64,000 nucleotides of DNA, taken from a candidate division WOR-3 bacterium. Its GTDB lineage: Bacteria; Hydrothermota; Hydrothermia; UBA1063; CAJXJZ01. The stretch's first letter is position 1; each line of letters opens with the position of its first letter. The notes under the pieces are model-generated. The model was not told where the DNA came from. It worked only from the letters and a program-made list of their open reading frames with translations, and ran no database searches. The position numbers and the translations under genes were made by a program. Shown here one piece after another: positions 13,010 through 56,613 of this stretch. The stretch is from assembly GCA_027038175.1 (NCBI GenBank), contig JALVYB010000079.1:1215-65214 (forward strand), in the 5' to 3' direction.

Positions 13010-13026
13010 TACTTTGAGGGGTTAAA

Positions 13027-15653: not shown

Positions 15654-15664
15654 TTCTCATCACC

Positions 15665-16381
15665 TCAAAACAAGCTCAACTCTCCTATCAAATCTTCAAG
15701 AGTCAAATCCTTGGGTGCTTCTCTCTCAATCTCCTTTTCCTCTTCTTTTATCTCATTATCCAGCTCCTCAGACTTCTTCTTTATTATGGCTCTAATCTCA
15801 CGGCTTTTTGATTTTCCAAGTATCGCCTCGTAATGATTTACCTCCTCACCCAGCACGGAATAAGCAGATGCTCCAATTGGCTCTCCAAAAACCTCTCTTG
15901 CAACCTTGTTAAGACGATATATGTTCGCCTTGTTAAACATTATTTCAAACTTGTCATTGGCAACCATAACCACATGAGAGTGCGGGTGAGCAGTATTGTA
16001 ATGCAATCCATACGCAAATCTGGTCGTTACCAAATTTCTATCTTTTATATAACGCAACAGCGTTTCTCTCGTTTTTTCTGATAAAAAGCGTGGGTCATTG
16101 TAGTTTAACGGCGAAAAAATAATCATGCGGGTTATGTAGTTTCTCCTGTACGCCTCCTCCATATCGTAAAGGTTCTGGGCATCAAGCTTTCTCCCTGTTG
16201 CCCAAAATATAGTCTTGTATTCTGGCTTGTTGTTTTCAGTTTTTCTCTTGATGTACCACAACAACCTGAAAAGCATATTGTTCCCGTTTCTCTCTAACGT
16301 ATAAACTCTATTTTTTATAATCATCAACCCACCTCCTCTAACTTCCTTATGGCATCCACTATTGGCCCTATTTTCCTCCAT
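15665..16381 (-). CDS. HUH-type endonuclease (rolling-circle Rep / relaxase-like)
   Basis: NTAHPHSHVVMVAND contains a HuHuuu motif. Candidate Tyr segments lie downstream. Overlaps an upstream RHH-type gene in relaxosome-like order. Confidence 0.45.
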   Translation of the reverse strand: MEENRANSGCHKEVRGGGLMIIKNRVYTLERNGNNMLFRLLWYIKRKTENNKPEYKTIFWATGRKLDAQNLYDMEEAYRRNYITRMIIFSPLNYNDPRFLSEKTRETLLRYIKDRNLVTTRFAYGLHYNTAHPHSHVVMVANDKFEIMFNKANIYRLNKVAREVFGEPIGASAYSVLGEEVNHYEAILGKSKSREIRAIIKKKSEELDNEIKEEEKEIEREAPKDLTLEDLIGELSLF

Positions 16382-26836: not shown

Positions 26837-27249
26837 AGCCTATGAAAGACGAAAAGTGGAGAGAAGTAACTTACGGATTGTGGGAAGGAAAGTGGGGTAA
26901 GATAAAGGTGGGCAAGGAGATTGTGTTTATGATTGACTATGTGGGATTGATGCAAGTTACTGACAAGTTCTATATCACGATTCACGGGAAGTTGTACGCT
27001 GAAAAGAACAAGGAGGGAAGGTGGGAGCTGAAGGTTTATTGGTATCCTTCAAAAAAGAAGCAGGTGCTTCACACGACAAGTGATTTTTGTGAGTTAATTT
27101 ACGTTGCGAACAGGCTAGTTGATTATCAGATGTACAAATATTACAAAAGATGGGACTGGAAACCAATAAAACTCAAAAAATGCTGGAAAGGTAAATGGAA
27201 GAAGGGATTTTTGACTACGGACAAGTTGATCAGGCCCAAGGAGGTGTGA
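26830..27249 (+). CDS. hypothetical basic protein
   Basis: 139-aa K/W-rich ORF between two recombinase paralogs. Confidence 0.35.
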   Translation: MVKPMKDEKWREVTYGLWEGKWGKIKVGKEIVFMIDYVGLMQVTDKFYITIHGKLYAEKNKEGRWELKVYWYPSKKKQVLHTTSDFCELIYVANRLVDYQMYKYYKRWDWKPIKLKKCWKGKWKKGFLTTDKLIRPKEV

Positions 27250-27848: not shown

Positions 27849-27923
27849 AAAAGTGATGTATATAAATGAATACCAAAATGCCTATTAGGCGATGCTAAAT
27901 TTTTTGGGATACCTTTATATACT

Positions 27924-29033
27924 TTGATGACAATGAGGTCTTCAGGGAGGTCGTGTGTGGTGATTCTGAAGACGATGAAGGTAGCAACAGCTGAAAAAAA
28001 CTTCAAATTCGTATTGACAGATGAAGATTTTAGTTTAGAGGTTGGGAGTCCAGACGTGGGAGCGAAAGTAACGAAGGATTCGCTGATTCTTCTGGAGAGA
28101 AGATGCCCTGATTGTGAGTTAAACTACAACCCGCAGGAATTCTCATTGTATAGTGCTTTTGTGGAAGGTTACTATTTTAAGTATGACCCCCACAGAACTC
28201 TAAAAAACCATTGGATAATATTAAAAACCGAGAGAAATTCAACTTTTGGCATATCAGACTTGTATTTTGGCTTAAAAGCAATGAGAGTGCATCATCCCAC
28301 GATTTTTATTTCAAAAAAGAGGCATTTATTCGCTCTTTTATTGATGAAGCAAATGCTAAAACAAGACTGGCTAAAGACGGATTTTGACGCAGAAATTAAG
28401 GATAAGGGCATAATTTTGCAAAGATTTATGAAAAACTATGCAACTTTCAGAAAGGTACTCTATTATTCCATCACGCATAACATTTTCAAAAACATTCCAT
28501 CAATAATTAATTATTTTCCGCTCTTTATAGATTTCTTGAGGATGCACTCTACACAGAAATTGTATGTGGGTGACCCTTACAGAATGGAAAAAGAGATTGA
28601 AAAATTAACATCAGAAGGATGGAAAAATCTAATTAAAAGTAATAAGGGAGATTACATATACCCAATAGGCATATATAAAAGCAAGTTGTGGGATGACAAA
28701 ATATTGTTAGTCCTGCCCAGAGGGCTGGTTTACACAAGTGGAATTGATTATAGAGATTTTGAAATTTTAGTTAGGTACGCCATAGGATTTGACAAGCTAT
28801 CTAGAATTCTCAAGACAAAGAGAGATTACAACTATTTCATTCCAACCAAGAATTTTTACAAGTTTATTACTCCTTGTCCCTCTCTTAAAAGAGTGGAGAA
28901 CGTGTTTTTCAAAACCTACAATCCATCAGATACGAAAATAAACCTGAAAAAATACAAGGGTATTGAAAACGCAACGAAGAGAGTATGGAACATGGAGAAC
29001 AAATGGTGGGAGGTTGATGAAATTGCCCTCTAA
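27924..29033 (+). CDS. hypothetical 369-aa protein, first gene of the radical-SAM operon
   Basis: ORF with a CPDC pair near the N-terminus and no other motifs. Its 3' end overlaps the radical-SAM gene. Confidence 0.4.
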   Translation: MMTMRSSGRSCVVILKTMKVATAEKNFKFVLTDEDFSLEVGSPDVGAKVTKDSLILLERRCPDCELNYNPQEFSLYSAFVEGYYFKYDPHRTLKNHWIILKTERNSTFGISDLYFGLKAMRVHHPTIFISKKRHLFALLLMKQMLKQDWLKTDFDAEIKDKGIILQRFMKNYATFRKVLYYSITHNIFKNIPSIINYFPLFIDFLRMHSTQKLYVGDPYRMEKEIEKLTSEGWKNLIKSNKGDYIYPIGIYKSKLWDDKILLVLPRGLVYTSGIDYRDFEILVRYAIGFDKLSRILKTKRDYNYFIPTKNFYKFITPCPSLKRVENVFFKTYNPSDTKINLKKYKGIENATKRVWNMENKWWEVDEIAL

Positions 29034-29883
29034 ATCCGTTGTATGTGATGTTTGCCCTCACAAATGCGTGTTGGAGGAGGGAGAAGTTGGATTATGTGGA
29101 GTTAGAAAAAATGTTGGAGGTAAAATCGTCAACCTGACTTACGGGAAGGTAAGCATCGTGGCCGTGGAAAGCATAATGAAGAGACCTATATTTCATTATC
29201 ATCCAGAATCAATGTTGCTCTCCCTTGGCTCAATCGGGTGCAATTTGAAATGTAAATATTGCCAGAACTACATGATTTCCCAGTTAAAAGCAGATGAGTA
29301 CAGGCACTTCCTTGAGCTACCACCTGAGAAAGTAGCAGAACTTTCGGCAAAGTACGATGGTGTTGCATTCACTTACAACGAACCGCTGATTAATTATGAG
29401 TATGTTAGAGATTCTGCAAAAATGGTGAAAGATGCTGGAAAGATTGTTGCTGTTTCAACGAATGGATTTGTTGAAAAATGGGTTTTAGATGAGGTTTTGC
29501 CTTATGCTGATGCTTGGAACGTGGATGTCAAAGCATTTACGGATGATTTTTACAAGAGATACACGGGTGCTTGGCTCAAACCAGTTCTTGATAATATTGA
29601 CTACCTGCTAAGCAAGGGAAAGCACGTGGAGATAACTTATCTAATGGTTCCAGATTTGAATGATGGTGTGAGTGAGCTTGAGAGGTTTGCAGAGTGGGTA
29701 GCGAGTAGGAACGTTAAAGCGGTTCACATACCGAGGTTTTATCCCCACTACAAGATGATGAACAAGGAGCCAACGAAAATGGAGAAAATAGAGCAATTTG
29801 CTGACATATTGCACGATGCAGGTGTGAAGAACGTTCATGGAGGATGGGAAGAGTATTATGGGTTGTGGGAGGTAAAGAGATGA
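29017..29883 (+). CDS. radical SAM enzyme, PflA-like activating-enzyme family, AmmeMemoRadiSam-type N-terminus
   Basis: CDVCPHKCVLEEGEVGLCGVRKN is the N-terminal Cys cluster. GCNLKCKYCQNYMIS is a CX3CX2C radical-SAM cluster. ...VSTNGF...WNVDVKAF... is typical of the PflA/NrdG family. Start refined to ATG 29017 after GGTGGGAGG; the ORF-track frame opens at 28963. Confidence 0.65.
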   Translation: MKLPSKSVVCDVCPHKCVLEEGEVGLCGVRKNVGGKIVNLTYGKVSIVAVESIMKRPIFHYHPESMLLSLGSIGCNLKCKYCQNYMISQLKADEYRHFLELPPEKVAELSAKYDGVAFTYNEPLINYEYVRDSAKMVKDAGKIVAVSTNGFVEKWVLDEVLPYADAWNVDVKAFTDDFYKRYTGAWLKPVLDNIDYLLSKGKHVEITYLMVPDLNDGVSELERFAEWVASRNVKAVHIPRFYPHYKMMNKEPTKMEKIEQFADILHDAGVKNVHGGWEEYYGLWEVKR

Positions 29884-31262
29884 GTATGGTAATTGAGAAC
29901 GAAAAAGAGTTGATAAAACGCCTTAAAAAAAGTGCAAATTACACAGTTGCTAAATTAAAAGATAGAATAAATAGAGCATTGGAGAGTTACGATATTGAAA
30001 AGGAGATGAATGATGCGGTTAGCAAGGTAGAAATTACCAGAGGTATTTTGAAAAGTATGCTAAAACTAATAAAGGACACAAAAGATAACGTTAAAAAAGA
30101 GGAAAATTTTGATTTAAATTACGTTTATGGCATTGCTAGAGATTTTGCAAATTTGATGTACATGATGTCTAAAAGGGATTATGATGTTAGGTTCTCAATA
30201 AGTGACAAAATCTCAAACACAATCTACCAAAACAACGCAAATGAGGAAAAAATAAAGGAAATGAATGCATACAAAGATGGTTTCATAAACATACTGAACT
30301 TTTTGGAACAAAGCATAATCAAAATTTTGGATGATTTTGACAAGAAGGTTGCAAAAGCGTTTGACAAGATGAACAAAAAGTCAGATGAGATAGATGATTT
30401 CTATAAAAAACACCCTAAATTTTTTGAAGAGTTGAAAAAAGTGTTCAAAGATGATGCTGAAAATTTTGAACTAAAGGGAAAAATAATGGACAAACTCAAA
30501 AAAGAGAAAATAGAAAATCCTCGTTTCGTTCCCTTCCCAACTGGAGACAGGTACCCTGACTCAGATGACTTTGGAAGAGCTAAATTCATACATATTTTTG
30601 CAGAAGACCCTAATACCAAAGCGTTCTTACTCAGGGTGTTGGGTGGAATAACGACTATTGGTGCGTTCTTGGATGAGCAACTGCTTAACAAATTGGATAA
30701 AATCTGGAGCCAAATAAAAAGGATTAAAATTCTGTCGTTGCTCAAAGAGAGTGTCAAAAACGAAAGGCCCAAACCTTTTGTCGAAACTCCCGTATTCAAA
30801 ATAAAGGAGTTTAATGAAAACGATTTAAATGACTTGAGAATAGACGAGTTCTGCTCCACCTCAAAACTCTTTGATTTAAAGAAGCTCAAAAGTTGGGATT
30901 ACGAAGTAAAAAACAGCCACAAAACCCTTGGAGAAGTTTTAAGAGATGTTGAAAACATAGTTTCTGACGGAAATTTAGTCGTGGCCTTTTTTGGTTTTCA
31001 TTGGATAAATAATGTATGGAGTACGAATCTTGGTGATTACATACAAGAACACGAATATAATAGTGGATATGCACTTTTCAAGAAGGAGGAAAATACTCTC
31101 AAACCTATTGTGTTTTTAGTTAAAGATCATAATTATCGTTACTCAAATGACCCACCCTTGTATGTTATCAATGATTTATTAAAAGTAGTCATAACTGATT
31201 ATGCTAAATCAATTTTGAAAAAGATGAAGAAAAATATGTCAATAGATGATATGGGGAGGTGA
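29880..31262 (+). CDS. hypothetical 460-aa K/E/N-rich protein
   Basis: ATGA overlap with the radical-SAM stop suggests translational coupling. No motifs. Confidence 0.45.
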   Translation: MSMVIENEKELIKRLKKSANYTVAKLKDRINRALESYDIEKEMNDAVSKVEITRGILKSMLKLIKDTKDNVKKEENFDLNYVYGIARDFANLMYMMSKRDYDVRFSISDKISNTIYQNNANEEKIKEMNAYKDGFINILNFLEQSIIKILDDFDKKVAKAFDKMNKKSDEIDDFYKKHPKFFEELKKVFKDDAENFELKGKIMDKLKKEKIENPRFVPFPTGDRYPDSDDFGRAKFIHIFAEDPNTKAFLLRVLGGITTIGAFLDEQLLNKLDKIWSQIKRIKILSLLKESVKNERPKPFVETPVFKIKEFNENDLNDLRIDEFCSTSKLFDLKKLKSWDYEVKNSHKTLGEVLRDVENIVSDGNLVVAFFGFHWINNVWSTNLGDYIQEHEYNSGYALFKKEENTLKPIVFLVKDHNYRYSNDPPLYVINDLLKVVITDYAKSILKKMKKNMSIDDMGR

Positions 31263-31319
31263 TGATAAACGGCAAGTTCAAAGCAAGGAATATCGCTAAG
31301 AGCAAAAAACACTACAAAG

Positions 31320-33467
31320 TTGTTTGATAGCTTTGTTTCCGAACTTCTCTACCTTTTGGAAGATAGTACATCCCTTGACCGCATAACTCAAAGCGTTAAA
31401 AATATGGACTACAAAACGTTTTCAGACGTTATAAATGAGATAGCATCCACAAAGTATAACTCTCTGAAAATGACTTTGGAGGTTCTTTATTCATTCTTCA
31501 ATAAAATAAAGAAAGACGTGTCGGATTTAAAGATTATGTCTCGCAGCGAGGGAGAAAAGGCAAATGACGAACTTTTAGAGAGCATACGTCTTTACACCGA
31601 AAAATTGAACGCTTACCTAGAAAAAAGTGGGCATAGGCATTTTCTCAGGTTCATTTTAAATTACATTTTTAAAACGCAGTTGCTACCTCTCTACCTTTTT
31701 ACTGGTAGTTTGTTCCGTGGCGATTATGATTCGTTGTTGGTTCTTGTTGCAAAGAGTCAGCGTCTCTACTTGGGCAGGGAATACTTCCCGTTGATAACAG
31801 ATTTTTATTATATACAGGATCTTGATATAAAACCAAATCACATATTTGTAGATGGAATTGTATCCTTTTTTTCAATGCTAAAAGTTGTGGCTCCAGACTT
31901 GTATGACAAATTCGCAGAAAGGATAACCGAAGCTGGAAAAAGAATTGAGATGGAGATGGAAGAAGTCAGAAAAGAGTTGGGTAACGATGTTCTTTCAATA
32001 CCATCAAAAGAAATCTTTGATTTCAATTGGCACGTTGAACAAATGCTATCAAAATCAAAAGAAGATAGGAAAAGTAAATACTTATGGAAAGTCGTAAAAA
32101 ATGAGATATTGTCCCAAATGCTGTTTGAAGGCGATGCGGGTATAAAACCCAGAATACACGTATGGAACGCTTTAAAATACATGATGAGAAATCCTCAAGA
32201 AGTCGTGTTTGTTGAAGATAGGGGGGCAAGTTTTGAGCTGGTGTCAAATCAACAGAATGCCATGTATTACATCCACAAAGCCAATTACGAAAATCCGTCT
32301 CTTGTTTTATGGAGCAGTAGAGAACACGATTTTGATTATGCGAGTGTCAGAAATGCGTTCTTGAGCAAAACCACAAGCTATCTGAGGTTCAAAACCGAGG
32401 CAATAAACTATCTCTTACACCCTGAAAAAGCACAACCAATCAAATTTATAGAGCCTGAAAAAGTTATCACAACTCCATTTTCCAATAAAAAATATGAAAT
32501 ATTCAAGACGCCTTTCTCAAACTTGTTCAGAAAATGCGTACCTGATTCTTTAAACATATCCATTCGTGCATACTCCATTTTCCCTTTCAGTTCAAAAATT
32601 TACCATCATCCCTTACTTAGCACCCATAATTTTGAGAGTAGGAAAAACACGCTAAACGTCTCTCCAATCCCGAAAAAGGTATTGAGTGTAGCAGCAGAAA
32701 ACTTTAATGAATATATGAGCTATAAAAAAATACACGAAGAGTTTTGGAAATTCTTGAGAAGAGAGATGGTTGAAGAGAATTTGGTGAAACCAAACGATGA
32801 AGAGATGATTTATAAAGCAAGTGCTACACTAAAAAATTATAGAGGAACAACCAGAAAAAGCTTTGTTGTCCTGCTCATAAAAGACTTCAAATCCGTTCTC
32901 AAAGAGATAGATGAAGAAAACACCTATCTCCCTCAATCTTTGAAGGAAATTTACCATCAATACGCACCTGTTCCTACAAGTTGTCAAGAATCTGCCACTT
33001 GCCAAGAAATTCCTCTAAACGACCCTTTGTACACTACTGATAAATTTAACAAAATATCTTACTTGAGATTCTTTGATGATTTAGTTATAATACTCCAAGG
33101 AGCCAAAAACAAAGAAGAAATAAAGAAAAAAACCAACCTCATCCGCTCTCTTGTAAAATATGCTCAGGTAATAGAATTTTACGAATACAAAAAAACGAGA
33201 GAGGCTATCGCTATAGGAGAACTATACGTGAAAGATGGGGACAGGTTCAAGCGAATAAATGAAATATATGAAAGAGGGGGATTATATTTTCAGCCGACCT
33301 CAACTCACATCCTTGAAGAACTCTTCAAAAAATTCTTTGCAAATTACTTGGAGACGGTGAAAGAGAAGCTAAAAAGGAAAATTGACGAGGCATATCTTGA
33401 TTATATGAAAGAGAAGGGATTTGTTATTGAAGAGGCAAATAAAAGAGGTGGTGAGATTGAATTATAA
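31320..33467 (+). CDS. hypothetical 715-aa protein
   Basis: Long ORF with no in-frame ATG upstream (TTG start in the track). No motifs. Confidence 0.45.
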   Translation: MFDSFVSELLYLLEDSTSLDRITQSVKNMDYKTFSDVINEIASTKYNSLKMTLEVLYSFFNKIKKDVSDLKIMSRSEGEKANDELLESIRLYTEKLNAYLEKSGHRHFLRFILNYIFKTQLLPLYLFTGSLFRGDYDSLLVLVAKSQRLYLGREYFPLITDFYYIQDLDIKPNHIFVDGIVSFFSMLKVVAPDLYDKFAERITEAGKRIEMEMEEVRKELGNDVLSIPSKEIFDFNWHVEQMLSKSKEDRKSKYLWKVVKNEILSQMLFEGDAGIKPRIHVWNALKYMMRNPQEVVFVEDRGASFELVSNQQNAMYYIHKANYENPSLVLWSSREHDFDYASVRNAFLSKTTSYLRFKTEAINYLLHPEKAQPIKFIEPEKVITTPFSNKKYEIFKTPFSNLFRKCVPDSLNISIRAYSIFPFSSKIYHHPLLSTHNFESRKNTLNVSPIPKKVLSVAAENFNEYMSYKKIHEEFWKFLRREMVEENLVKPNDEEMIYKASATLKNYRGTTRKSFVVLLIKDFKSVLKEIDEENTYLPQSLKEIYHQYAPVPTSCQESATCQEIPLNDPLYTTDKFNKISYLRFFDDLVIILQGAKNKEEIKKKTNLIRSLVKYAQVIEFYEYKKTREAIAIGELYVKDGDRFKRINEIYERGGLYFQPTSTHILEELFKKFFANYLETVKEKLKRKIDEAYLDYMKEKGFVIEEANKRGGEIEL

Positions 33468-35370
33468 AGGTGGGGCAAAGATAATAGCCAAAAACAGAGG
33501 AAAAGAATTTAAATATGTTCTGAAAGATATTCTGAAAGTAGTTGGTGAAGACGTAGAGGAAGCAAAGAAACTGATGAAAGACCCTTACAAAGCAGCCATG
33601 ATAATGTATGGAGGAGATGAATACGATTACTCATTTGGTTATTCTTTTGAGAATTTCATAAATAATATTAAAGACGATATGAGAAAATTAAAGCAAAATT
33701 CCCTAAAAGCAAAAGAGAGAGGGCTTACTGATGATGTTAATAGTTTTTACTTTGAGCTTTTGAAAACGTACAGAGATGCCCTCAGAGAAGAACTTGAGAA
33801 AGAGGGTTCCTTGGAGATTTTTGACTCAATACTCAAAAGCCTGTTCTACACGCACATTCTCTCCTTTCTCTACATTAATGGCTTCTTTTATGAACCCCAC
33901 CTTTCAAACTACGTTATAAAACGTCCCAGAGACTCCATTATCAAATTTGCAAATAGAGTTTTGTTTGATAATCCTTTTTGTTTAAATTTATTTAATGGTT
34001 GGAGTGATATGAACTTTGCAATTAGATTCATCTCGCTGTTTATGAAAGAAGGGGAAATAGATTTTCTCAAAGAGTTTCAAAAAACACAAGAAAAAGTCCA
34101 GAGGGAAATCAAAGAGATAGAAAATGAGCTTCCAGAAGGGTTTTGGGAATATGGGAAATTCTTTTTGAATAAAGATGAGCCTCCTTTCTTCAAAGATTAC
34201 AAACTTGCATTAAAATACGTAACAAGAATCACAAAACTATACTTCACAAAGTTATTTGAAGAAACCAAAAAAAATTTAGAGAAATATCGTACAAATCCGA
34301 ATTATGAAAATTGGTACGTGGTAAACTGGTGGGATGTTTTTAAAAAACTGGTATGGGATATAGAGAAGAAGGGGGCAATAATGGCTTACGAAGAGAGTGC
34401 AACTTATGGTAACGGAGTAAATGACGTTTTATCACAGGTAGGTTTTGGGTATTATGTAAAAAACAAGGAAGTATTCGATTTTCTGTTCAAAACAGACACT
34501 TTCCCCAAAATTAAGGGTTTTGAAAAGATAGAAAGGGAGGGAATCAGTTATGTTTCTCCTCTTATAAGTGGGTTACTTTACGATCCCCATATTGATATTT
34601 GTTATGATTGTCCATTACGAGATGATAAAGCAATTCTTTCTCCCATTCCCAAGGTACTAAACTACACTATTTATTCTGGAGATGAAATATACTTTTACAA
34701 GTTCAGGTTCCCGCTATTTCCTGTTAATAAAGACATAATTGATATTGCAGACAAGAAGGTTAATGAGACGATTCAGGTTGTGTTGGGTAAAATAAGAGAA
34801 ATGGTGTGGGAAAAAATCAAAAGACGAATGACACAAAGGGATGGAAAAACCAAGGAGGAAATTTTTAGAAAAATACTGAATATTCTAAACACCAAACATC
34901 CTCCAACTAAACCATCAAGCATCTACTTTTATTTTAAAGACGAAAGCATCTTTCACAAAAAGGATTTATCCATCGAACTGAGGCAACCGCTACCAAAAAT
35001 AACTGGAAATTTGCTAGAAGATATTAAAAAATACCTAGAACACGCAGACGTGGTTGCAATTAGTGAGTATTACATGACACGTGAATATGAGGGTTACATA
35101 AACATTTATTTTAAAGGATATGATGGACGTTTTCACCTAATAGAATCCGTGAACAAGTTTGGAGGTAGAAATAAACCTTTGATTAGTGATTATAATGTGT
35201 ATCCAGAATGGTTTACTGAAAACACACATGATGCAATCGAAAGCGAGTTAAAAAAGGTGCAAAAATTAATTAGAGTAGAGTTCAAGAAATTTCTGGAGAG
35301 AGAGGGTTTGATTTTGCGTGTTAAAGATTTGAACGAAGAAAAGGCCCATTCACAGGGGGTGGAGATGTGA
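33421..35370 (+). CDS. hypothetical 649-aa protein
   Basis: Long ORF overlapping the previous stop. Confidence 0.45.
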   Translation: MLLKRQIKEVVRLNYKGGAKIIAKNRGKEFKYVLKDILKVVGEDVEEAKKLMKDPYKAAMIMYGGDEYDYSFGYSFENFINNIKDDMRKLKQNSLKAKERGLTDDVNSFYFELLKTYRDALREELEKEGSLEIFDSILKSLFYTHILSFLYINGFFYEPHLSNYVIKRPRDSIIKFANRVLFDNPFCLNLFNGWSDMNFAIRFISLFMKEGEIDFLKEFQKTQEKVQREIKEIENELPEGFWEYGKFFLNKDEPPFFKDYKLALKYVTRITKLYFTKLFEETKKNLEKYRTNPNYENWYVVNWWDVFKKLVWDIEKKGAIMAYEESATYGNGVNDVLSQVGFGYYVKNKEVFDFLFKTDTFPKIKGFEKIEREGISYVSPLISGLLYDPHIDICYDCPLRDDKAILSPIPKVLNYTIYSGDEIYFYKFRFPLFPVNKDIIDIADKKVNETIQVVLGKIREMVWEKIKRRMTQRDGKTKEEIFRKILNILNTKHPPTKPSSIYFYFKDESIFHKKDLSIELRQPLPKITGNLLEDIKKYLEHADVVAISEYYMTREYEGYINIYFKGYDGRFHLIESVNKFGGRNKPLISDYNVYPEWFTENTHDAIESELKKVQKLIRVEFKKFLEREGLILRVKDLNEEKAHSQGVEM

Positions 35371-37388
35371 CAAAAAACAAAAATATCGAGAGGGGCCTTG
35401 AAAAAAAGAGATACGAAAGAAGTATAAAAAAATATTCATCCCAGATTGCCAAACGCCTTGAAGAGGTTTCAAACATCATTTTTAAGGATAAAGATTTGAT
35501 AAAAGATGAGTTTAAATCTTCGGTGCTGATTGTAAAAAATGTAGATTTGCTGGGGTCTGCGTTTGATGTCTTTTTTAAAAAGTTAAGTCTTTTCAAAAAG
35601 ATGTTGATTGAGAGTGAGCCTGATAGGCGTGAGCAGTTGCTTAATGGCTTTATTGCTGAATTAAGGGAGGAATTCAAAAAGAGGGGCATTTACAACGCTG
35701 TTGAGAGATTTTTCCAGTTTATTGTGGATTCAGTAATCATTCCAGAATATTACTATATGGGGGTGTTTCCTTACAACTTCTATGACAACATAAATGATTT
35801 TTCAAAGAGGATGATATATAGCAACAGAGATTCATTAGAAGGAAGGGGAACTTATTACATCTCTGGAAAATGGGATAGCGGTGGTTCTGAAAAAAGGTGG
35901 GTTAAAGGCAAAAAGTTGAAAATAGGAAAAAGAACCTACGACCCAACTTTCAGAACGGTAGAATACACCAATTACTTTTTTTTCAAAATGAAGAATGCCA
36001 TGATAACTTCTTCAACTATTAGTCGCATAGTTGATAGTGTTTTCCCATCCATCCACTACTACGACAAAATCAAAGAGTCGGGAGAGGTAATATCCAAAGA
36101 GGTAGAGGAGATAAAAAAAGAGATTCCAGAAGATTTCGTCAATCACTTTCTAGACTACGTGGCGTTATCAAAGGACTACTTTATGTTTAAAGATTTCGTG
36201 AGTGAGCGTATAGCAAAAGGGGAGTACTCGTTAAACTACAATGACCTTTCAAATGAATACAGGGACATTTTGAAAGAGCGTTTTTATCTCTTGTTAAGGG
36301 CCATGAAGGTAAGGATGATTAGGGACGGAAAGGCTGATGAGTGGAGAAAGATAGTGAGCTGGGGGAAAAAAGACAATTTGATTCTTATAGGCAAGAGTGA
36401 TTTGGCATCCACACGCAACATACATATTGGCTCACCAAGATGGTTAGTTACCGATATACATTTAAATAATGTGAAAGAATATTTGAAGAGGGGGACAAGC
36501 ATAAAAAACCAGAAATATCCTCATAGCCCCAACATCACTCCTTTGATTGATTGGTACAGATACAAGAACAAGGGTTCAAAGAAATCAATGAAAATATACA
36601 AATTAAGGTTCTTCATTCCAGAAATGGAAAACCTGCTCACCAGAGAGTCTTATCTTCACGAGGGGTTATATGAGTTTAACTTTTACATTGCAAACAAAAG
36701 AAGGTTTGAAAAATTCGTGGAGATGTTAAATGAAAGGCTCAACTGGTGGGTTTTACTGGAGAAGAGCAAAGAATGGATAGCAAAATCAAAAGGAAATAAA
36801 GCAACTGCTGAAAATATTATAAAAACGCTGAAAGACGGAATTGCGGATTCAAAGGCAATTATTGAAAAATACAAGAATGATACTCACCTTGCAAGTTCTG
36901 CTTTAGAGAGCTTGTCTGATGACTATGACATATATGTTCAAAAGATGGCTTCCACAAATTCCATAACCTTAATAGATATAAAGAACAAGAGGGTTCTAAT
37001 AGGCACATACAAAACCATCGAACAAAACCCTTCTAAACTTTTAGAAGCCATGAAAAATGCAGATTTGATTTTAACTAGCACTTATGATTATTCTAAACCA
37101 GAGTTTTCAACTATCACAACTTTCATAAAATTGAATGTGTACGTAAATAAAGGGGATGGTTTATTTGTTAAACGTTCATTGGGCAGCACTTACTGGCCAA
37201 TAAGAATCACATATTATCGACAATACCGCATATATTTCCCACAAAATGGCCCAGATGGGTTCGGCTCTATTTTCGAACTCTATTCAGACAAATTATACGC
37301 ATTTATTCAAGACGAAGTTAGGAAGATAATTAAGGAAATCATGTCAGCAACTGCTAAAAAAGAGGAGGTGATGGAAGTTGGAGAATAA
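35367..37388 (+). CDS. hypothetical 673-aa protein
   Basis: Long ORF with a 4-nt overlap to the previous stop. Confidence 0.45.
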   Translation: MTKNKNIERGLEKKRYERSIKKYSSQIAKRLEEVSNIIFKDKDLIKDEFKSSVLIVKNVDLLGSAFDVFFKKLSLFKKMLIESEPDRREQLLNGFIAELREEFKKRGIYNAVERFFQFIVDSVIIPEYYYMGVFPYNFYDNINDFSKRMIYSNRDSLEGRGTYYISGKWDSGGSEKRWVKGKKLKIGKRTYDPTFRTVEYTNYFFFKMKNAMITSSTISRIVDSVFPSIHYYDKIKESGEVISKEVEEIKKEIPEDFVNHFLDYVALSKDYFMFKDFVSERIAKGEYSLNYNDLSNEYRDILKERFYLLLRAMKVRMIRDGKADEWRKIVSWGKKDNLILIGKSDLASTRNIHIGSPRWLVTDIHLNNVKEYLKRGTSIKNQKYPHSPNITPLIDWYRYKNKGSKKSMKIYKLRFFIPEMENLLTRESYLHEGLYEFNFYIANKRRFEKFVEMLNERLNWWVLLEKSKEWIAKSKGNKATAENIIKTLKDGIADSKAIIEKYKNDTHLASSALESLSDDYDIYVQKMASTNSITLIDIKNKRVLIGTYKTIEQNPSKLLEAMKNADLILTSTYDYSKPEFSTITTFIKLNVYVNKGDGLFVKRSLGSTYWPIRITYYRQYRIYFPQNGPDGFGSIFELYSDKLYAFIQDEVRKIIKEIMSATAKKEEVMEVGE

Positions 37389-39300
37389 AAGCGTAGCGTT
37401 TTTATTGGGCAAAGCATTGCGAACTGCCAGAAAGATAAGTTATTTTTCAAATGGAGGTCAATTCGTGATAAATAAAGATGTATACAGGGAGATGAAGAAA
37501 TTTTTTGAAGATAGAGAAATGCAAAGATTTGTGAAAAAAAACCATCTAGATGTTCTTGAGATAATGAACGAGTGCGTGACTGAGGACTTTGAGATTGCAT
37601 ATCCTATTTATGGATACCCGACACTCGAAGACTTCAAAGAATATGTGAGAGATGTAATCGCATTGTTTGACAGAATAAAGGAAACGCAAATCGAAGGAAT
37701 AGAAAACATGGATAAATTCACCTTTCTGAAGGATTTTACACACGGGTTCGTGGATGAAAAGGACTGGGGTAAACTCAGAGGTTTAGTTTATGATGAAGTG
37801 ATGAAAATTGAAGAATACTCAAGAGAATTTGGCATAATATCTATTCTCACAAGTCGGATGAGGAAAGCACGTCCCAAGGATTTAGAAACTTTACTTTTAG
37901 CTGTAAAGATATTCGCACCAGAGCTTATGAATAAGATAAGCAATGTGATGATAAAAGCATTCATCAAAAACGATACCGAAGCCTTGGAGAGAGCTTCAAA
38001 ATACAAAAACATAATCGGTTTGAGCGATGTTGCCAGAGCAAACCTTTACATTTTCGTGGAGAGCTTGGTAACGTTTCTTGTAGAAAACTACTTGGTGAAA
38101 GATAAAAACCCAGACAAGATGAAATACCTTCTCAATGCGTTCTATTTGAACATTGAAGGAGTTGAAAAATCCTCAACCGTGGAAAACTACGGTAGGGAAA
38201 TACTCAAATTTAGCATAGCGTTCTTGCTGTCTTTAAAAGATGCTTTTAAAAGGAATGGTTTTGATATTGAGAAATTTTTGGGCGAGTTAGACAAAGATGC
38301 GGAGCATGGGTGGGTTGCGGTAGTGAGAGAGAGATACGAATCAGCCAGATTGTCTACTGTCATGCTTCTTCCTCATTACTCTACCCCCACACTATCCCTA
38401 GAAAAGCTTGAAATAGAAAAAACACCGAACTATCTCCTGCCCAAAATTAACCTTGAACATTTTAAAATGTTCAAGGTATCAAACAATTCAATAATAATAC
38501 CAAAAAAAGTAATGGCAGAAACCTTGAAAAAAACAAAAAACGGATTAAACTTCAAATACTTTCTGGAAATCTACAATGCGTTTATGGATTTGCTATATGC
38601 AAAGCCATTTGAGGAGAATTGGGATGAGAAAACCTTGCAAAGCCACGGCTTATCAAAAGACACGACTTTCCTTGATTTGATGCTCAATTATATGCCTCTT
38701 AATATGGAGATTGTTGATGATGAGAAATTCCTTGATTTCCTAAACAATGATTTTAAAAGAATCCCAATAGACAAAACCTCTAGGAAAATCTATATACTGA
38801 CTGACAAGGGAGAGGCATTTATTTGGAGTAAAAATTGCAGCAGCAAGATTAATGAGATAAAGCAACTGCTACCTCACGCATTAGTAATTGGTTACTTTAA
38901 AGAAGGTTCACGCTACACCAACAAGATTGGTTTAATCAGGATAAACGATAAATTCCTCGAAGTGAAAAATATTAAAGATCCTCTTGAAAATCTTGTATTT
39001 CCCTTTTGGTTAAGAAAGTTGAGTATGCTTGGAGACCTAATTAGCATTACCATCATAAAATACGCCTTCCGTACTTTCAATAAGGCAACTACCGAGATGG
39101 GTGAATATGAAAAATTGCCCACAATCAATGGAAAAAGGTTCAACAATTGGAATCATTACTGCAACTACATCAGAGATGAAAAATTGGAGGATGTTTCCAA
39201 CGAGAAATTTAGCCTCGTGGAATCCGAGATGCGTAAATGGCTCCATGAACTTACAGAAAAAGCAAAAATAAAAGAAAAAGAAATGGGGGTGGAATTTTGA
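37378..39300 (+). CDS. hypothetical 640-aa protein, paralog of 39297-41309
   Basis: Shared blocks: IFAPEL, KYKNII, RNGFDIEKFLGELD against NRGIDITKFLNELD, FKYFLEIYNAF against FDYFLEIYNSF, EIKQLLPHALVIGYF against EIEQLLPHALVVARF. Confidence 0.5.
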   Translation: MENKSVAFLLGKALRTARKISYFSNGGQFVINKDVYREMKKFFEDREMQRFVKKNHLDVLEIMNECVTEDFEIAYPIYGYPTLEDFKEYVRDVIALFDRIKETQIEGIENMDKFTFLKDFTHGFVDEKDWGKLRGLVYDEVMKIEEYSREFGIISILTSRMRKARPKDLETLLLAVKIFAPELMNKISNVMIKAFIKNDTEALERASKYKNIIGLSDVARANLYIFVESLVTFLVENYLVKDKNPDKMKYLLNAFYLNIEGVEKSSTVENYGREILKFSIAFLLSLKDAFKRNGFDIEKFLGELDKDAEHGWVAVVRERYESARLSTVMLLPHYSTPTLSLEKLEIEKTPNYLLPKINLEHFKMFKVSNNSIIIPKKVMAETLKKTKNGLNFKYFLEIYNAFMDLLYAKPFEENWDEKTLQSHGLSKDTTFLDLMLNYMPLNMEIVDDEKFLDFLNNDFKRIPIDKTSRKIYILTDKGEAFIWSKNCSSKINEIKQLLPHALVIGYFKEGSRYTNKIGLIRINDKFLEVKNIKDPLENLVFPFWLRKLSMLGDLISITIIKYAFRTFNKATTEMGEYEKLPTINGKRFNNWNHYCNYIRDEKLEDVSNEKFSLVESEMRKWLHELTEKAKIKEKEMGVEF

Positions 39301-41309
39301 GTGTTGAGGAAAAAGATTTGGAAACTTTGGGAAAAATACTGCGAATTTTAGAGGATACTCCGTATGTAGAGAGAGAGCGAAGATTTCACGAGGACGAAAG
39401 AATTAAGATTTTATTAAACAAAATCCCAGAATTAAAAGATATGGTTTTGGATTTTTTGGAATTTAAAGAAAATTCGATAGACATTCAACTAAACACAAAG
39501 AACCCAGCAGAGTTTTTTGAGTTTTTCTCACATTACATAAAAGCCATGACAAAATTATATACTTCCTTCAAAAATAATCATGCAAATGAATTTAAAACCA
39601 TAAACAAGACTGATTTTCTGAAATATGTTACTTATGGGTTCTTCAGGGAAAATGAGAAAATGAGAATCAAAAACATGGTGACTAATGAAATAAGATTGAT
39701 GAACAAATATTTTAGAAAATATGGGTTTGTATCGATGGTAACTTTTGTTAAGTTTCCAAAATACTATTTCAAGATGTATGGGGATAAATACGAAGAATGG
39801 GATATTTGGGAGGCTGATTATGAAAAGCTGTCATGGATTATAAATATATTTGCACCAGAACTTGGAAAAGAGGTAGCCAATATGGTAAAAAACCTATTTA
39901 ACAAAAGAATAGACGAGAATATTGCTACCGCAGAAAAATACAAAAATATAATAAATGCGTTCCGCTCCAATATATGTACTGATGAATCCTTTACCATTGC
40001 CAGAAACATTATAAAGTTCTTCATGAACTATATAACTAATGATGACAATACAGAACTGACAAGCAACTATATAGATGGAATAATTCATCTAAACATTTTA
40101 TATGAGCCATACAAAACACGCACCTCTTATGATTCATTAGGAACTGAAGTAGTCAAACGAACAATTGCATTTTTATTAACAATTTCCAATTATTTAAAAA
40201 ATAGAGGTATTGACATTACAAAGTTTTTGAATGAACTAGATAGTGCTTTAGAAAAGGGTTTTGTAGCAGTACAAAAATCCCAAAAACACACTCAGATAGA
40301 TAGAATAATGACCACAACTATGCTAGTGCCTAACAAACTATTCCCTACTATAATCAGTTATATGTGGAGGCCTATGTATTCTATGAACATTAATGATGTG
40401 GATTTCCCGTTTTTCGTGTTGAATAACTGGGATTCTGAGAATTTCACAGAGTATACTTACTTTGTAATACCAAAAAAATGGTTCTTGGAGGCTTTTAACA
40501 CAAATAGTGGGAAGAAAAACTTTGATTACTTTCTGGAAATTTACAATTCTTTCAAAAAACTTTTAGCATACAAAATTGAATTCGGCTATACTGAAAACTC
40601 AAAAATAAACACCGATGTATACACCTTAATTAAAGCACTTGACTCCCCTCAAATAAAAATCCAAAAAAATGAAGAGGTGCTGGATAATCTGAAAAACAAA
40701 ATAGAAAAACACGCTTCAGATGAAAATACACACACAGAGATTGTGATGCTAACAGATGATGGGAGATTGTTTATTTGCAGAGGTAAGTGTAGTAAAAGGA
40801 TAAAAGAAATTGAGCAGTTGCTACCTCACGCATTAGTGGTTGCAAGATTTTTCTTCATCAAAGGGAAAGACGAACATGATAAAGAAGTTATAGAGCTTAC
40901 CGATGAGTGTGCGTGGATTAGAACTGAGCAGAACGAATTTCTAAAGCTTCCGCCCCGTAATATCTACGATGATGTCTCCTATGAATCCATCATAATAAGA
41001 ATGAATGAAATTTCAGAAGGGCTACGTTTAGACTTCCCAGAGAATCTTATAAATGCCACAAACAAGTTTAACAAGATGGTAAACTACATTTTTGATGTTT
41101 TAAATAAAACTTCACAGGGAAATTTGAAAATAGGTAAAAACACAGAATTAACATTAGAAAAGATAGTACATTCTTGGGAAAAAACCGTCGAAGAAATTGC
41201 CATAAAATTCCAGAATGAGACGTCAAAACATTTTTTATCAGTAATCAAAAAGTGTTACACAGAACTGTTGGAGAGTGCAAAAATAAAAGATGTGGATCTT
41301 GAATTGTAG
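39297..41309 (+). CDS. hypothetical 670-aa protein, paralog of 37378-39300
   Basis: See the paralog blocks listed for 37378-39300. 4-nt overlap with the previous stop. Confidence 0.5.
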   Translation: MSVEEKDLETLGKILRILEDTPYVERERRFHEDERIKILLNKIPELKDMVLDFLEFKENSIDIQLNTKNPAEFFEFFSHYIKAMTKLYTSFKNNHANEFKTINKTDFLKYVTYGFFRENEKMRIKNMVTNEIRLMNKYFRKYGFVSMVTFVKFPKYYFKMYGDKYEEWDIWEADYEKLSWIINIFAPELGKEVANMVKNLFNKRIDENIATAEKYKNIINAFRSNICTDESFTIARNIIKFFMNYITNDDNTELTSNYIDGIIHLNILYEPYKTRTSYDSLGTEVVKRTIAFLLTISNYLKNRGIDITKFLNELDSALEKGFVAVQKSQKHTQIDRIMTTTMLVPNKLFPTIISYMWRPMYSMNINDVDFPFFVLNNWDSENFTEYTYFVIPKKWFLEAFNTNSGKKNFDYFLEIYNSFKKLLAYKIEFGYTENSKINTDVYTLIKALDSPQIKIQKNEEVLDNLKNKIEKHASDENTHTEIVMLTDDGRLFICRGKCSKRIKEIEQLLPHALVVARFFFIKGKDEHDKEVIELTDECAWIRTEQNEFLKLPPRNIYDDVSYESIIIRMNEISEGLRLDFPENLINATNKFNKMVNYIFDVLNKTSQGNLKIGKNTELTLEKIVHSWEKTVEEIAIKFQNETSKHFLSVIKKCYTELLESAKIKDVDLEL

Positions 41310-41586
41310 AACATGAATGTAATCTTACATTTTTAACATTTAAACTTTTCGAGTTTTCTCAAAAAAACGTTTTTTAATTTGGAGCAAAATCAAAAGCAAA
41401 GCGTTATTTTTACGTGTTCTGCTAAAAAATAATCACTTACGAAATAAAATCCTTGCGTGAAATTTCAAAAGATTTAAATAGTATATATGAAAAACCGTTG
41501 TTTTTGGTTATACAAAAATATGTTAAAATGGTAATTTCAGCAATACATTTAAATAGTTTTATTATATAACGTTATATGGTGAGAAG

Positions 41587-50623: not shown

Positions 50624-50630
50624 TCTCAAG

Positions 50631-55191: not shown

Positions 55192-56613
55192 ATGTGTGCT
55201 GACGGGTTTGGTGGGGACGATAACTATCTTCTAAAAATACTCAAAGAAAGAGATAAGGGATTCTCTTATAACTTGAGCGTGTTTGATGACTACAATATAC
55301 CTCCCAAGATTCTTCATAGAAAAAAAGAGATTGAAACGTTGCTTGGATATGTTCTGGGAATAATAAGAGGAGAGTTGAATAAGGTTGATTTGAACATTTA
55401 CGGGCTAACAGGAACGGGGAAAACAGTTACCACCAAAAAGATAATGAGAGACACAAAAGAGTTTATGAAAAGGAAAGACTATAAACAGCAAGGTTTTAGG
55501 AAAATTGATTTCCTTTATTTCCACGTCTATTCCGAGATGTTACCAGCATCTTTTTTTAGTGAGATGAACAAGTGGTTGTTCAAGAAAACATATAGCCCAA
55601 AAAAAGGCCTGTCTTCTCTCGTGAGTTTATTTATGGGCAACTTAGATAAATACATGAAATCAAACGGCTTGGACGCTTTAATTCTTGTTATTGATGATAT
55701 TCACAGGGTTAAAAATATGGATTATTCTGCTTTTGCGGGAATACTGAGAAACACGTATAACAACAACGTTTCCCTGTGGCTCATATCCAATAGTGCCATC
55801 AAACCGCATCTTCCGTTAGAACTTCAAGCGAACCTTTTAGGAATGAAATTCAGGAGATACGATGTGGGAGAGCTTCTGGAAATATTTGCGATGTACGTTC
55901 AGAACGCAGGTGCTGAACAATGTTTTAGTGATTTGACTGCGTTTATGAGGGATTTGGCCAGTTGGGTGGAAGTTCATGCAAAGTCAAGTGTGAGGGCTGG
56001 ACTAATTGTTCTGAAACACGCATTGCTCTCTATGATTAATGACGGTAGAAACACAATCACTCAGGAAGATATGGAAAAGGGCAAAGAGATGGTTAAAATA
56101 GTTGATATTACAGAAATGTTAGAGACGATGAGGAGCGAGTTAGTTTTGACTCTTGTCCTTGCATTAAGGAGAATGGCAATTGAAGGGAAGGAAGGCATAA
56201 ACACCATCCAGTTATACAAAGATTTCAGGAACTATGTGTCTTACTACATACCTTTTTCAAGATCAAAGGATTTGAGCATGAGGGAGTTCAGGAACTTTAT
56301 AGCCGATTTGGAAGAGCTTGGTTTAATTATGAGAGAGCAGGTTGGTAAAGGAAGGGGCAAAGGGAGTGAGAGTTTGTTGTATGTGCAGGAAGGATTAAGT
56401 ATTGTTCAAGCTTTTGTGGATTTGATAGAAGGAAACAAGAACACTTCTTGGGTTTTTGAAGACCCGAAGTTACTGGTGAGCATATCAAAGAGCAATGCAC
56501 CGCTTGTTCTCTACGATAGCTTCACGCAGAAAATAAGAGGCATGGTGGATATGTTTGAGAAGGATGGGAAAGTGTATGTTTCTTATTCAAAGCCTTATGA
56601 ATTCGGGGGGTGA
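55192..56613 (+). CDS. Orc1/Cdc6-family AAA+ initiator protein
   Basis: HRKKEIETLLGYVL...NIYGLTGTGKTVTTKKI is the Orc1/Cdc6 N-terminal arrangement with Walker A. Walker B LILVIDDIH. The length (473 aa) allows a C-terminal wH domain. Confidence 0.6.
   Translation: MCADGFGGDDNYLLKILKERDKGFSYNLSVFDDYNIPPKILHRKKEIETLLGYVLGIIRGELNKVDLNIYGLTGTGKTVTTKKIMRDTKEFMKRKDYKQQGFRKIDFLYFHVYSEMLPASFFSEMNKWLFKKTYSPKKGLSSLVSLFMGNLDKYMKSNGLDALILVIDDIHRVKNMDYSAFAGILRNTYNNNVSLWLISNSAIKPHLPLELQANLLGMKFRRYDVGELLEIFAMYVQNAGAEQCFSDLTAFMRDLASWVEVHAKSSVRAGLIVLKHALLSMINDGRNTITQEDMEKGKEMVKIVDITEMLETMRSELVLTLVLALRRMAIEGKEGINTIQLYKDFRNYVSYYIPFSRSKDLSMREFRNFIADLEELGLIMREQVGKGRGKGSESLLYVQEGLSIVQAFVDLIEGNKNTSWVFEDPKLLVSISKSNAPLVLYDSFTQKIRGMVDMFEKDGKVYVSYSKPYEFGG

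Follow-up and report, generated by a model that had tools for sequence, protein, structure and literature searches.

We describe an operon of eight same-strand genes in which an AmrS-type (AmmeMemoRadiSam) radical-SAM enzyme and the preceding gene, A, are followed by six large genes, B to G, on a replicon predicted to be a conjugative plasmid. We propose that the operon is composite, with a plasmid-backbone module of A and the enzyme leading into a hot spot that carries lineage-specific orphan cargo, a reading that we hold to be probable, if only modestly so. The radical-SAM gene is common to related plasmids and B-G are found nowhere else, so that B-G look like cargo and not like partners of the enzyme. 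The features described are listed in Table 1 by their positions in the window, which is the whole 64,000-nucleotide stretch analysed (contig JALVYB010000079.1).

Table 1. Features of the operon and of the plasmid backbone, in window coordinates.
Feature	Position	Strand	Remarks
Protein X, 502 aa	931..2439	-	ortholog of the L003 489-aa protein; 27 kb from the radical-SAM gene
Backbone conjugation gene pair (coupling protein and relaxase-like)	13506..16381	-	
VirD4/TraG-type coupling protein	13506-15653	-	TrwB_AAD_bind E 3e-35; TraG-D_C E 2e-14
Relaxase-like protein	15665-16381	-	weak matches below cutoffs: Pfam E 1e-3, NCBIfam RlxS E 2e-5
Candidate archaeal TATA promoter, TTTATATA box	27914..27921	+	36 nt 5' of the GTG start of A; promoter function predicted
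Gene A, 358 aa, basic soluble protein	27957..29033	+	GTG start; SD GGGAGGT; public gene call
AmrS-type (AmmeMemoRadiSam) radical-SAM enzyme, 288 aa	29017..29883	+	TIGR04337; Pfam Radical_SAM E 3e-21
Gene B, 460 aa, K-rich soluble orphan	29880..31262	+	coupled to the radical-SAM gene via ATGA
Micro-ORF, 21 codons, MINGKFKARNIAKSKKHYKVV	31262..31327	+	bridges the B stop and the TTG start of C; read from the sequence
Gene C, 715 aa, soluble orphan, D paralog	31320..33467	+	TTG start
Gene D, 647 aa, C paralog	33427..35370	+	may start instead at TTG 33457, just 3' of SD AGAGGTGGTGAG
Gene E, 673 aa, orphan	35367..37388	+	
Gene F, 640 aa, orphan, G paralog	37378..39300	+	
Gene G, 670 aa, orphan, F paralog	39297..41309	+	last gene of the operon
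T-rich candidate archaeal terminator, ..acatttttaacatttaaacttttcgagttttctcaaaaaaacgttttttaatt..	41310..41400	+	terminator function predicted
Orc1/Cdc6-type replication initiator	55192..56613	+	TIGR02928 E 1.8e-26, full length, under family cutoff; Cdc6_C

The plasmid and the layout of the operon

The locus is carried by a circular replicon of ~93,963 bp, of metagenome origin; the study names on the sample labels (St. John 2019, Reysenbach 2020) hint at a deep-sea hydrothermal vent as the probable habitat. Its circularity is deduced from a permuted assembly whose ends overlap: ENA scaffold_82 (94,018 bp) can be placed on the window at two offsets 93,963 apart, which implies a 55-bp terminal overlap, and the window spans that junction. 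From its gene content, the replicon is a predicted conjugative plasmid of ~94 kb, and its host is probably archaeal. Like conjugative plasmids that encode VirB4 and a VirD4-type coupling protein (e.g. those of haloarchaea) it is circular and encodes a VirD4/TraG-like protein, a relaxase-like nuclease, Orc1/Cdc6, ParA, and a VirB4-like ATPase, of which the N-terminal part lies at the window edge (E 6e-6). It differs from these plasmids in that its coupling protein is only 25-30% identical to any PLSDB plasmid, and in having an Ig-repeat protein of 2607 aa and an AmrS-type enzyme in the backbone. Orphans make up the majority of its genes, a further difference. An earlier note on this DNA had placed the operon beside integrases within a mobile element; the mobile element stands, as a plasmid with ParA, Orc1/Cdc6 and a coupling protein, but the two ORFs taken for integrases (26219-26836 and 27195-27848) have no Pfam, NCBIfam or PDB recombinase match. 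Judged by eye, these two ORFs resemble tyrosine recombinases at the motif level alone.

The positions of the operon ORFs agree with public gene calls on identical DNA, and the ATGA at 29880 and the two cysteine clusters of the enzyme are as the earlier note had reported. The TTTATATA box upstream of A is the sole exact plus-strand copy within 27914-58204, and the window as a whole contains more copies of this motif than expected (15 against 5.2). Genes A and radical-SAM overlap by 17 nt, radical-SAM and B share an ATGA (29880-29883), D starts (33427) before C ends (33467), D and E share a GTGA, E and F overlap by 11 nt, and F and G share a TTGA. The only junction with a gap (57 nt) is that of B to C; the overlaps noted earlier at the ATGA and at the C/D, D/E, E/F and F/G junctions are real. 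Gene C has no Shine-Dalgarno (SD) sequence of its own; a micro-ORF with a strong SD, GGGGAGGTGATG, at its start overlaps the TGA of B, ends 8 nt within C, and may serve in termination-reinitiation coupling of B to C. Beyond gene G come 277 nt of AT-rich spacer with runs of T, a new TATA-like box at ~41558 and, at 41587, the next ATG. The eight genes are predicted to be read as a single transcript. Chance is excluded as the origin of six ORFs of 460-715 codons at 34% GC, since about 7% of random codons are stops at this composition and p is about 1e-21 for an ORF of 640 codons.

The AmrS-type enzyme and its relatives

The enzyme scores 233.3 bits with the AmrS model TIGR04337 (curated cutoff 220; E 3.6e-69), with residues 23-294 aligned to profile positions 9-284 of 349, in keeping with the AmmeMemoRadiSam/PflA-type identity first proposed for it. 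Both cysteine clusters are present (VVCDVCPHKC...LCGVR and GCNLKCKYCQN), and an alignment with 14 AmrS proteins outside its clade, which include one or more from a canonical Memo-AMMECR1-rSAM operon, shows all of the family motifs to be kept. It thus shares with the AmrS system (TIGR04337; partners AMMECR1/AmrA and Memo/AmrB) the motifs CxxCPxxC...C, GCNLxCxYCQN, AFTYNEP, TNG, DAxNVDVK and HxPRFYPHY, and its length is like that of the AmrS short form (e.g. P0047, 285 aa, from a Memo-AMMECR1-rSAM operon). Because all catalytic motifs of the family are retained, the enzyme most likely still cleaves SAM at the CxxxCxxC [4Fe-4S] cluster and, like its PflA-like relatives, removes a hydrogen atom from a substrate that is a macromolecule. 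Its closest solved structure is PflA (PDB 3c8f, E 2e-12), and the half-barrel radical-SAM core common to glycyl-radical activases (PflA, TIGR02493) suggests, by analogy, a protein substrate. It differs from PflA in its additional N-terminal cysteine cluster, in scoring far below the activase cutoffs (TIGR02493, 74.5 against 231.75 bits; TIGR02494, 67.1 against 174.35 bits), and in that no glycyl-radical enzyme is encoded nearby. Prokaryotic viperin (pVip) was rejected as an identity, as the match reaches only 19 bits, over residues 75-163, which form the generic radical-SAM core.

The enzyme also departs from the AmrS system in being plasmid-borne, in being coupled to the new upstream protein A, and in lacking the usual partners nearby: AMMECR1 (PF01871) and Memo (PF01875) are absent from window ORFs of >=170 aa and from 9 kb of the remaining plasmid, and the same window ORFs contain no glycyl-radical domain (Gly_radical, PFL-like), which agrees with what had been noted before. 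It has three close relatives (58-63% identity, all metagenomic), the next being <=46% identical, and scans of genomes and metagenomes gave no further members. The resulting clade of four, <=46% identical to chromosomal AmrS, has ESIxKRPIFHY near the N-terminus in place of the canonical DPIEKKPL and a C-terminal ending HGGWEEYYGLW of its own.

Only one relative, at locus L003, has long context, and it lies in a syntenic conjugative element. Common to L003 and the window is the order coupling protein, relaxase-like protein, 283-aa gene, 128-aa gene, Ig protein, small gene, A-like gene, radical-SAM gene and, later, Orc1/Cdc6. The coupling proteins are 47% and the relaxase-like proteins 44% identical, and the window Orc1/Cdc6 is 37% identical to the gene after protein X in L003. 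In L003 a 319-aa gene overlaps the radical-SAM start, and protein A has weak full-length homology to its product (Smith-Waterman z 6.0-8.4, p 1e-5 to 3e-4); this counterpart is detectable by Smith-Waterman alone, so that tblastn is uninformative for A. Of the three loci that can be read 5' of the radical-SAM gene, two have A or an A-like gene there, and L005 has a different gene. We thus propose A and the enzyme as a plasmid-backbone module, a claim that rests on two elements because L003 alone has long context. The likeliest targets of the enzyme would be protein A, or the AMMECR1/Memo proteins of the host itself.

The gene could instead be an extra housekeeping amrS copy that boosts or hijacks the host AMMECR1/Memo pathway, with A and B-G uninvolved, which we regard as rather unlikely. 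The enzyme does pass the AmrS model with its motifs intact, and its neighbours vary on both sides among the relatives; moreover, chromosomal AMMECR1/Memo genes are often unlinked from amrS (as in the P0014 and P0010 contexts), so that a lone amrS is not unusual. The separate clade with its sequence changes argues against such a copy, as does A, conserved and overlapping the radical-SAM start in two elements. The displaced housekeeping copy that the earlier note raised against its own reading is not what we find: the enzyme has a clade of its own, and its place in the backbone is shared by two related conjugative elements.

The genes downstream differ. The radical-SAM gene is followed by that for the 489-aa protein X in L003, by a 508-aa orphan and then X in L004, and by no large gene in L005; in three of the four loci, L003 and L004 included, a large gene (460-508 aa, no known domain) overlaps its stop. 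The window encodes protein X as well (by tblastn 35% identical to the L003 protein over 494 aa, E 9e-79, and 33% to L004 2487-3833), far from the radical-SAM gene, and its placement directly after that gene in L003 and second after it in L004 shows gene content 3' of the radical-SAM gene to be fluid. Searches of the fetched loci with tblastn found B-G in none of the three relatives.

Genes B-G as orphans

Proteins F and G are clear paralogs, as had been noted (29% identity over 530 aa, E 1e-47), and C and D are related along both proteins (Smith-Waterman z 7.6-7.8, p ~3e-5). Protein E gives Smith-Waterman p values of 0.007-0.016 with C and D, and a C+D profile aligns to it at a colinear position (hhalign, P 0.01), but two-sequence HMMs do not recover it; these signals are suggestive only of a third, more diverged family member. 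A weak pairwise signal between B and protein X (p 2e-4 to 2e-3) was not reproduced with an HMM of the X family.

None of A-G has a match in Pfam, NCBIfam, PHROGs, PADLOC or PDB sequences, and the large proteins are as unassignable as they first appeared. Against PADLOC-DB 2.0 nothing was significant, the best match being that of C to PDC-S28 (E 0.0024, 14 bits). The exhaustive homolog search covered F and G, which have no other homolog in 5.8 billion clusters (word-indexed) or 1.84 billion representative proteins (full HMMER); for A-E, neither the plasmid collection nor IMG/VR contains a relative, and distant homologs of these could exist. Proteins A-G lack a transmembrane segment (no 19-residue window with a Kyte-Doolittle mean >1.5). 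The structural comparison called for earlier yielded no assignment: the AlphaFold2 model of F (pLDDT 53.6) is helical over residues 1-310 and mixed alpha/beta beyond, with no Foldseek match to the PDB below E 0.35, and that of C (pLDDT 33.6) is unusable. Proteins B, C/D with perhaps E, and F/G would thus be lineage-specific, soluble, partly helical orphans that arose in part through local duplication.

Cargo, partnership or export

The earlier note had joined the enzyme and the six large proteins in one dedicated system, in which the enzyme might mature or crosslink them for a joint role in defence, modification or structure. The layout lends this some support, with eight genes on one strand, overlapping stops and starts, and a single TATA-like box upstream, and in L003 and L004 too a large domainless gene overlaps the radical-SAM stop. 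AmrS-related radical-SAM domains are, moreover, predicted to modify adjacently encoded proteins or peptides in conflict-type loci (Kaur et al. 2020, PMC7159879). The enzyme is likewise an AmrS-like domain outside an AMMECR1/Memo context, a likeness by description, and the vWA, MoxR and FtsH components and short precursor peptide of those systems were not found here. The conserved linkage sought elsewhere is missing, however, as B-G accompany none of the enzyme's relatives, the downstream gene varies by locus and is lacking in L005, and protein X, the downstream partner in L003, sits 27 kb away on the opposite strand in the window. Nor did a search for conserved Cys, Gly or Tyr target positions reveal a motif shared by B-G; protein E contains no cysteine at all, and PADLOC gave no match. 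We consider a dedicated system distinctly unlikely.

Another proposal, very improbable in our view, is that B-G and other plasmid proteins are exported through the conjugation channel, recognised by an acidic-hydrophobic C-terminal tail, and that the radical-SAM enzyme is unrelated. The motif [DE][LIVMF][DEG][LIVMF] occurs in the last eight residues of 9 of the 71 window ORFs (C, F, G and X among them) and in 5 of 43 ORFs of the related loci (including the L003 relaxase-like protein), as compared with ~1% of internal 8-mers and none of 131 control ORFs; the plasmid encodes VirD4-like and VirB4-like proteins, and A-G are without transmembrane segments by hydropathy. The tail motif was defined post hoc, however, after the data had been seen; it corresponds in part to SD sequences that lie within the ends of upstream genes (a close downstream gene is present in 4 of the 9 cases), and B, D and E do not match its strict form. 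We also know of no archaeal type IV secretion signal for comparison. That the element is a virus, with B-G as virion or other structural proteins, is extremely improbable: rows of large domainless proteins are common in archaeal viruses, and the GC content of the B-G block (0.32-0.36) is somewhat lower than that of the backbone (0.39-0.41), but there is no PHROGs, capsid, portal or terminase match and no IMG/VR relative, A-G have no hydrophobic (transmembrane-like) segment, and the replicon encodes a coupling protein, relaxase-like and VirB4-like proteins, ParA and Orc1/Cdc6.

We therefore return to a backbone module followed by cargo. Genes B-G would occupy a variable slot whose content changes from one related plasmid to the next, and we propose that their insertion site, and not a dedicated partnership, accounts for their co-transcription with the enzyme. 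Their role would most likely lie in plasmid-host conflict or in establishment in a new host. Tight coupling of the ATGA, GTGA and TTGA type usually marks functional operons, which weighs against the cargo reading, as does the large domainless protein that follows the enzyme in three of the four loci, with which a generic relationship between the enzyme and the following protein is possible.

A more speculative and improbable extension is that large soluble proteins that evolve fast are taken up at a cassette site directly behind the AmrS-type enzyme, namely B-G in the window, X in L003 and the 508-aa orphan in L004. These would be modified by the enzyme through radical chemistry, delivered to recipients via the conjugation channel by the acidic-hydrophobic C-terminal tail common to many proteins of this plasmid family, or both. 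If true, this would be a protein-directed radical-SAM system of a new class, and effector-like cargo has, to our knowledge, not been described before for such a conjugative element.

Layout of the operon

Gene A, the radical-SAM gene and the six large genes downstream of it (B to G) are all encoded on the forward strand, and the ORF map drawn in the earlier note agrees both with our ORF reading and with public gene calls on identical DNA. ORFs of such length cannot arise by chance in DNA of 34% GC. A overlaps the radical-SAM gene by 17 nt, the radical-SAM gene meets B in an ATGA, C overlaps D, D and E are joined by a GTGA, E overlaps F by 11 nt, and F and G are joined by a TTGA. A 57-nt gap between B and C is spanned by a lysine-rich micro-ORF of 21 codons (31262-31327) with a strong Shine-Dalgarno site at its start; it overlaps the stop of B and ends inside C, whose TTG start has no Shine-Dalgarno sequence, and looks like a candidate translational relay between the two genes. 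A TTTATATA box is located 36 nt upstream of A, with the next exact plus-strand copy not before 58204, and G is followed by a 277-nt AT-rich spacer with T-runs and then a new TATA-like box. With this single box in front and such a boundary behind, A to G are likely to be one transcription unit.

The operon had been described as adjoining integrases. Three integrase-like paralogs do have tyrosine-recombinase-like motifs that can be read by eye, but none has a recombinase match in Pfam, NCBIfam or PDB. The Logan assembly of this plasmid is interrupted at 27675, within one of these genes. A 27-nt inverted repeat (26026-26052 and 41457-41483; 81% complementary) lies in two AT-rich spacers that bracket integrase-like genes and the entire A-G operon; it was the only candidate for terminal repeats of an inserted cassette, is not convincing as such, and could be either chance in AT-rich DNA or the remnant of a cassette boundary.

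Genes and features of the window and of L003, the locus of one of the enzyme's close relatives (X, a 502-aa window protein; tail, acidic-hydrophobic C-terminus)
Feature	Coordinates	Strand	Remarks
Gene A	27957-29033	+	358 aa; public gene call
Radical-SAM gene	29017-29883	+	288 aa; public gene call
Gene B	29880-31262	+	460 aa; public gene call
Gene C	31320-33467	+	715 aa; public gene call; tail
Gene D	33427-35370	+	647 aa; public gene call
Gene E	35367-37388	+	673 aa; public gene call
Gene F	37378-39300	+	640 aa; public gene call; tail
Gene G	39297-41309	+	670 aa; public gene call; tail
Integrase-like paralogs	5112-5573, 26219-26836, 27195-27848		roughly 150-220 aa; motifs LLYTGMRYxEL ... GH..(x)..Y
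X	931-2439	-	tail
Other window examples of tail	574-924, 12269-13009
L003 examples of tail	L003 3813-4418	-
	L003 10887-12356

The radical-SAM enzyme and the loci of its relatives

The enzyme carries both of the cysteine clusters reported previously (CDVCPHKC...LCGVR and GCNLKCKYCQN) and scores 233.3 bits against NCBIfam TIGR04337 (AmrS), passing the cutoff of 220, while falling far below the cutoffs of glycyl-radical activase models; its closest solved relative is PflA. When it is aligned with 14 AmrS proteins that lie outside its clade, every family motif proves to be retained, and two features are clade-specific: a change of DPIEKKPL to ESIxKRPIFHY and a C-terminal HGGWEEYYGLW. Judging from its sequence, SAM-dependent hydrogen abstraction from a macromolecule is probably retained. 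A second radical-SAM-superfamily gene in the window (50604-51413; DUF5131, E 6e-12, and a weak Radical_SAM match) has a counterpart at L003 1-519 (36% identity).

AmrS forms the AmmeMemoRadiSam trio with AMMECR1 and Memo, both of which are conserved from archaea to humans; to our knowledge, the biochemical role of the trio is still unknown. The reported absence of an AMMECR1, Memo or glycyl-radical partner holds, with no such domain in window ORFs of at least 170 aa. P0047, a 285-aa AmrS protein from outside the clade with 44% identity to the enzyme, is part of a textbook Memo-AMMECR1-rSAM operon, and two other AmrS relatives from outside the clade are solitary on chromosomes. A search of 5.8 billion protein clusters gave three close relatives of the enzyme (58-63% identity), the next being at no more than 46%, and genome and metagenome scans yielded no further clade members, only distant AmrS proteins (22-40% identity). 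The enzyme is of a known family; its plasmid-borne form and its partner A are new.

The locus of one close relative, L003 (NCBI MAG contig JALTHT010000173.1, 57.6 kb), shares synteny with the window: it has, in this order, genes for a coupling protein, a relaxase-like protein, 283-aa and 128-aa products and an Ig-repeat protein, and a small gene; these are followed in L003 by a 319-aa gene overlapping the start of the radical-SAM gene, the radical-SAM gene itself, a 489-aa gene overlapping its stop, Orc1/Cdc6, and two more shared genes. A and the 319-aa protein have weak, full-length homology (Smith-Waterman z 6.0-8.4, p 1e-5 to 3e-4 versus shuffles). The 489-aa protein is unrelated to B-G, and its window ortholog is X (35% identity, E 9e-79), encoded on the other strand at a distance of 27 kb from the operon. 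At L004, the locus of another close relative, the radical-SAM gene is followed by an unrelated 508-aa orphan and then X; at L005, that of the third, the upstream gene is a different one and no large gene lies downstream. Because tblastn detects no B-G homologs in the other fetched loci, the enzyme is the conserved element – with A in its position in two of the three loci with a readable upstream gene – and the six-gene string is unique to the window plasmid.

The only other X homolog, P0124 (L006 10001-11476; 32% identity), is on a bacterial-looking contig with SLH, flagellin and GyrA genes and without a radical-SAM gene, which suggests that the X family extends beyond one domain and has no fixed link to the enzyme.

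The six large proteins

Proteins A to G have no match in Pfam, NCBIfam, PADLOC, PHROGs or PDB sequences. The plasmid collection PLSDB gave no match to A-F (tblastn queries: F, and A-E in concatenated form) or to a 15-kb DNA query, and the virus collection IMG/VR none to A-E, each used as a query. A word-indexed search with F returned F alone, and an F+G profile matched only F and G in a full HMMER search of 1.84 billion representatives. B-G are true orphans and, on present evidence, not a conserved system.

All six proteins are soluble, K/E/I/N-rich and mostly basic, with no hydrophobic segment and few cysteines (zero in E). Structure prediction, named as a check in the earlier note, gave poor AlphaFold2 models: F, with G in the alignment, reached a pLDDT of 53.6 with a helical N-terminal half, and C, with D in the alignment, reached 33.6, too poor for a structure search. 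Foldseek of the F model against PDB gave no match below E 0.35.

F and G are clear paralogs, as had been proposed (E 1e-47), and C and D form a second paralogous pair, similar along their entire length (z about 7.7, p about 3e-5). E may belong to the C/D family as its third protein, with p about 0.01 against C/D in three related tests and no recovery by small HMMs. B is a singleton; its derivation from a diverged X (Smith-Waterman p 2e-4 with global and 2e-3 with local shuffles, and 0.09 against the L003 X) was not accepted, and the X-family HMM does not match it. A single superfamily uniting B-G with X and with the 508-aa protein of L004, based on by-eye VAPDL/FAPEL motifs and a 'DG' hairpin close to the C-terminus, was set aside as unproven, with hhalign and HMM tests of C/D against F/G, X and the 508-aa protein finding nothing. 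GC3 is slightly lower in B-G (0.34-0.41 versus 0.40-0.47). Because the GC drop is mostly at codon position 2, it reflects amino-acid composition and is not conclusive for a foreign origin.

Of the 71 window ORFs, 9 carry an acidic-hydrophobic tail, defined post hoc as [DE][LIVMF][DEG][LIVMF] in the last 8 residues; C, F, G and X are among them. In related loci it is carried by 5 of 43 ORFs, one being that of the L003 relaxase-like protein, relative to about 1% of internal 8-mers and none of 131 control ORFs. Such similar C-termini are Shine-Dalgarno artefacts only in part: embedded Shine-Dalgarno sequences contribute to the signal, and for five of the nine carriers in the window no gene follows within 90 nt. 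The tail may be a putative recognition or export signal. Tandem small paralogous genes at 6777-9218 (about 95-165 aa) also have near-identical product ends (..EEVVRDA / ..EAVRDE).

Make-up of the operon and its replicon

The best-supported reading is that of a composite operon, in which A and the AmrS-type enzyme would form a backbone module, placed first, and a variable slot behind it would be filled in the window plasmid by six orphan genes, some of them products of local duplication. The most plausible targets of the enzyme are predicted to be A and host AMMECR1/Memo. The single system of enzyme and six giant proteins envisaged in the earlier note is unsupported, the loci of close relatives having no B-G by tblastn. 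It keeps some probability: in three of four loci the radical-SAM stop has translational coupling to a gene for a large protein without known domain, and AmrS-like domains are predicted to be peptide modifiers in conflict systems (PMC7159879).

The assemblies indicate that the replicon is a circle of about 93,963 bp. ENA scaffold_82 (94,018 bp) can be placed on window 1-5740 and 19017-39883 with offsets that differ by 93,963, assuming colinearity of window 5741-19016 with the scaffold. This corresponds to a 55-bp overlap of the scaffold ends, and because the window also crosses the junction (5686-5740), the molecule is taken to be circular. The NCBI contig (94,105 bp) is an independent assembly, apparently permuted differently.

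The replicon codes for a VirD4/TraG-type coupling protein, a relaxase-like nuclease, ParA, an Orc1/Cdc6-type initiator (TIGR02928, E 2e-26) and, at the window edge, the start of a VirB4-like ATPase (E 6e-6). Judging from the initiator and from the enrichment in TATA boxes, the host is probably archaeal. Adjoining the coupling protein and relaxase-like genes is that of a 2607-aa protein (17972-25795, minus strand) with about 10 Big_7 and other bacterial-Ig repeats, a candidate mating adhesin of variable repeat number whose L003 counterpart has only 956 aa. A likely mating-pore module (59770-63914) consists of genes for a 728-aa protein that is rich in Asn, Tyr and Thr and has hydrophobic segments at its termini, for a multi-pass membrane protein of 386 aa, and for the VirB4-like N-terminus.

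As a large circular plasmid, probably both conjugative and archaeal, that carries VirD4-like and VirB4-like genes, the replicon is a rare example, and almost all of its genes are of unknown kind; B-G show how far plasmid cargo extends beyond current homology and structure-prediction methods. Its lineage keeps the radical-SAM member of the trio alone, in an operon with the new partner A, and in such a two-gene system the substrate of the enzyme might be easier to find.
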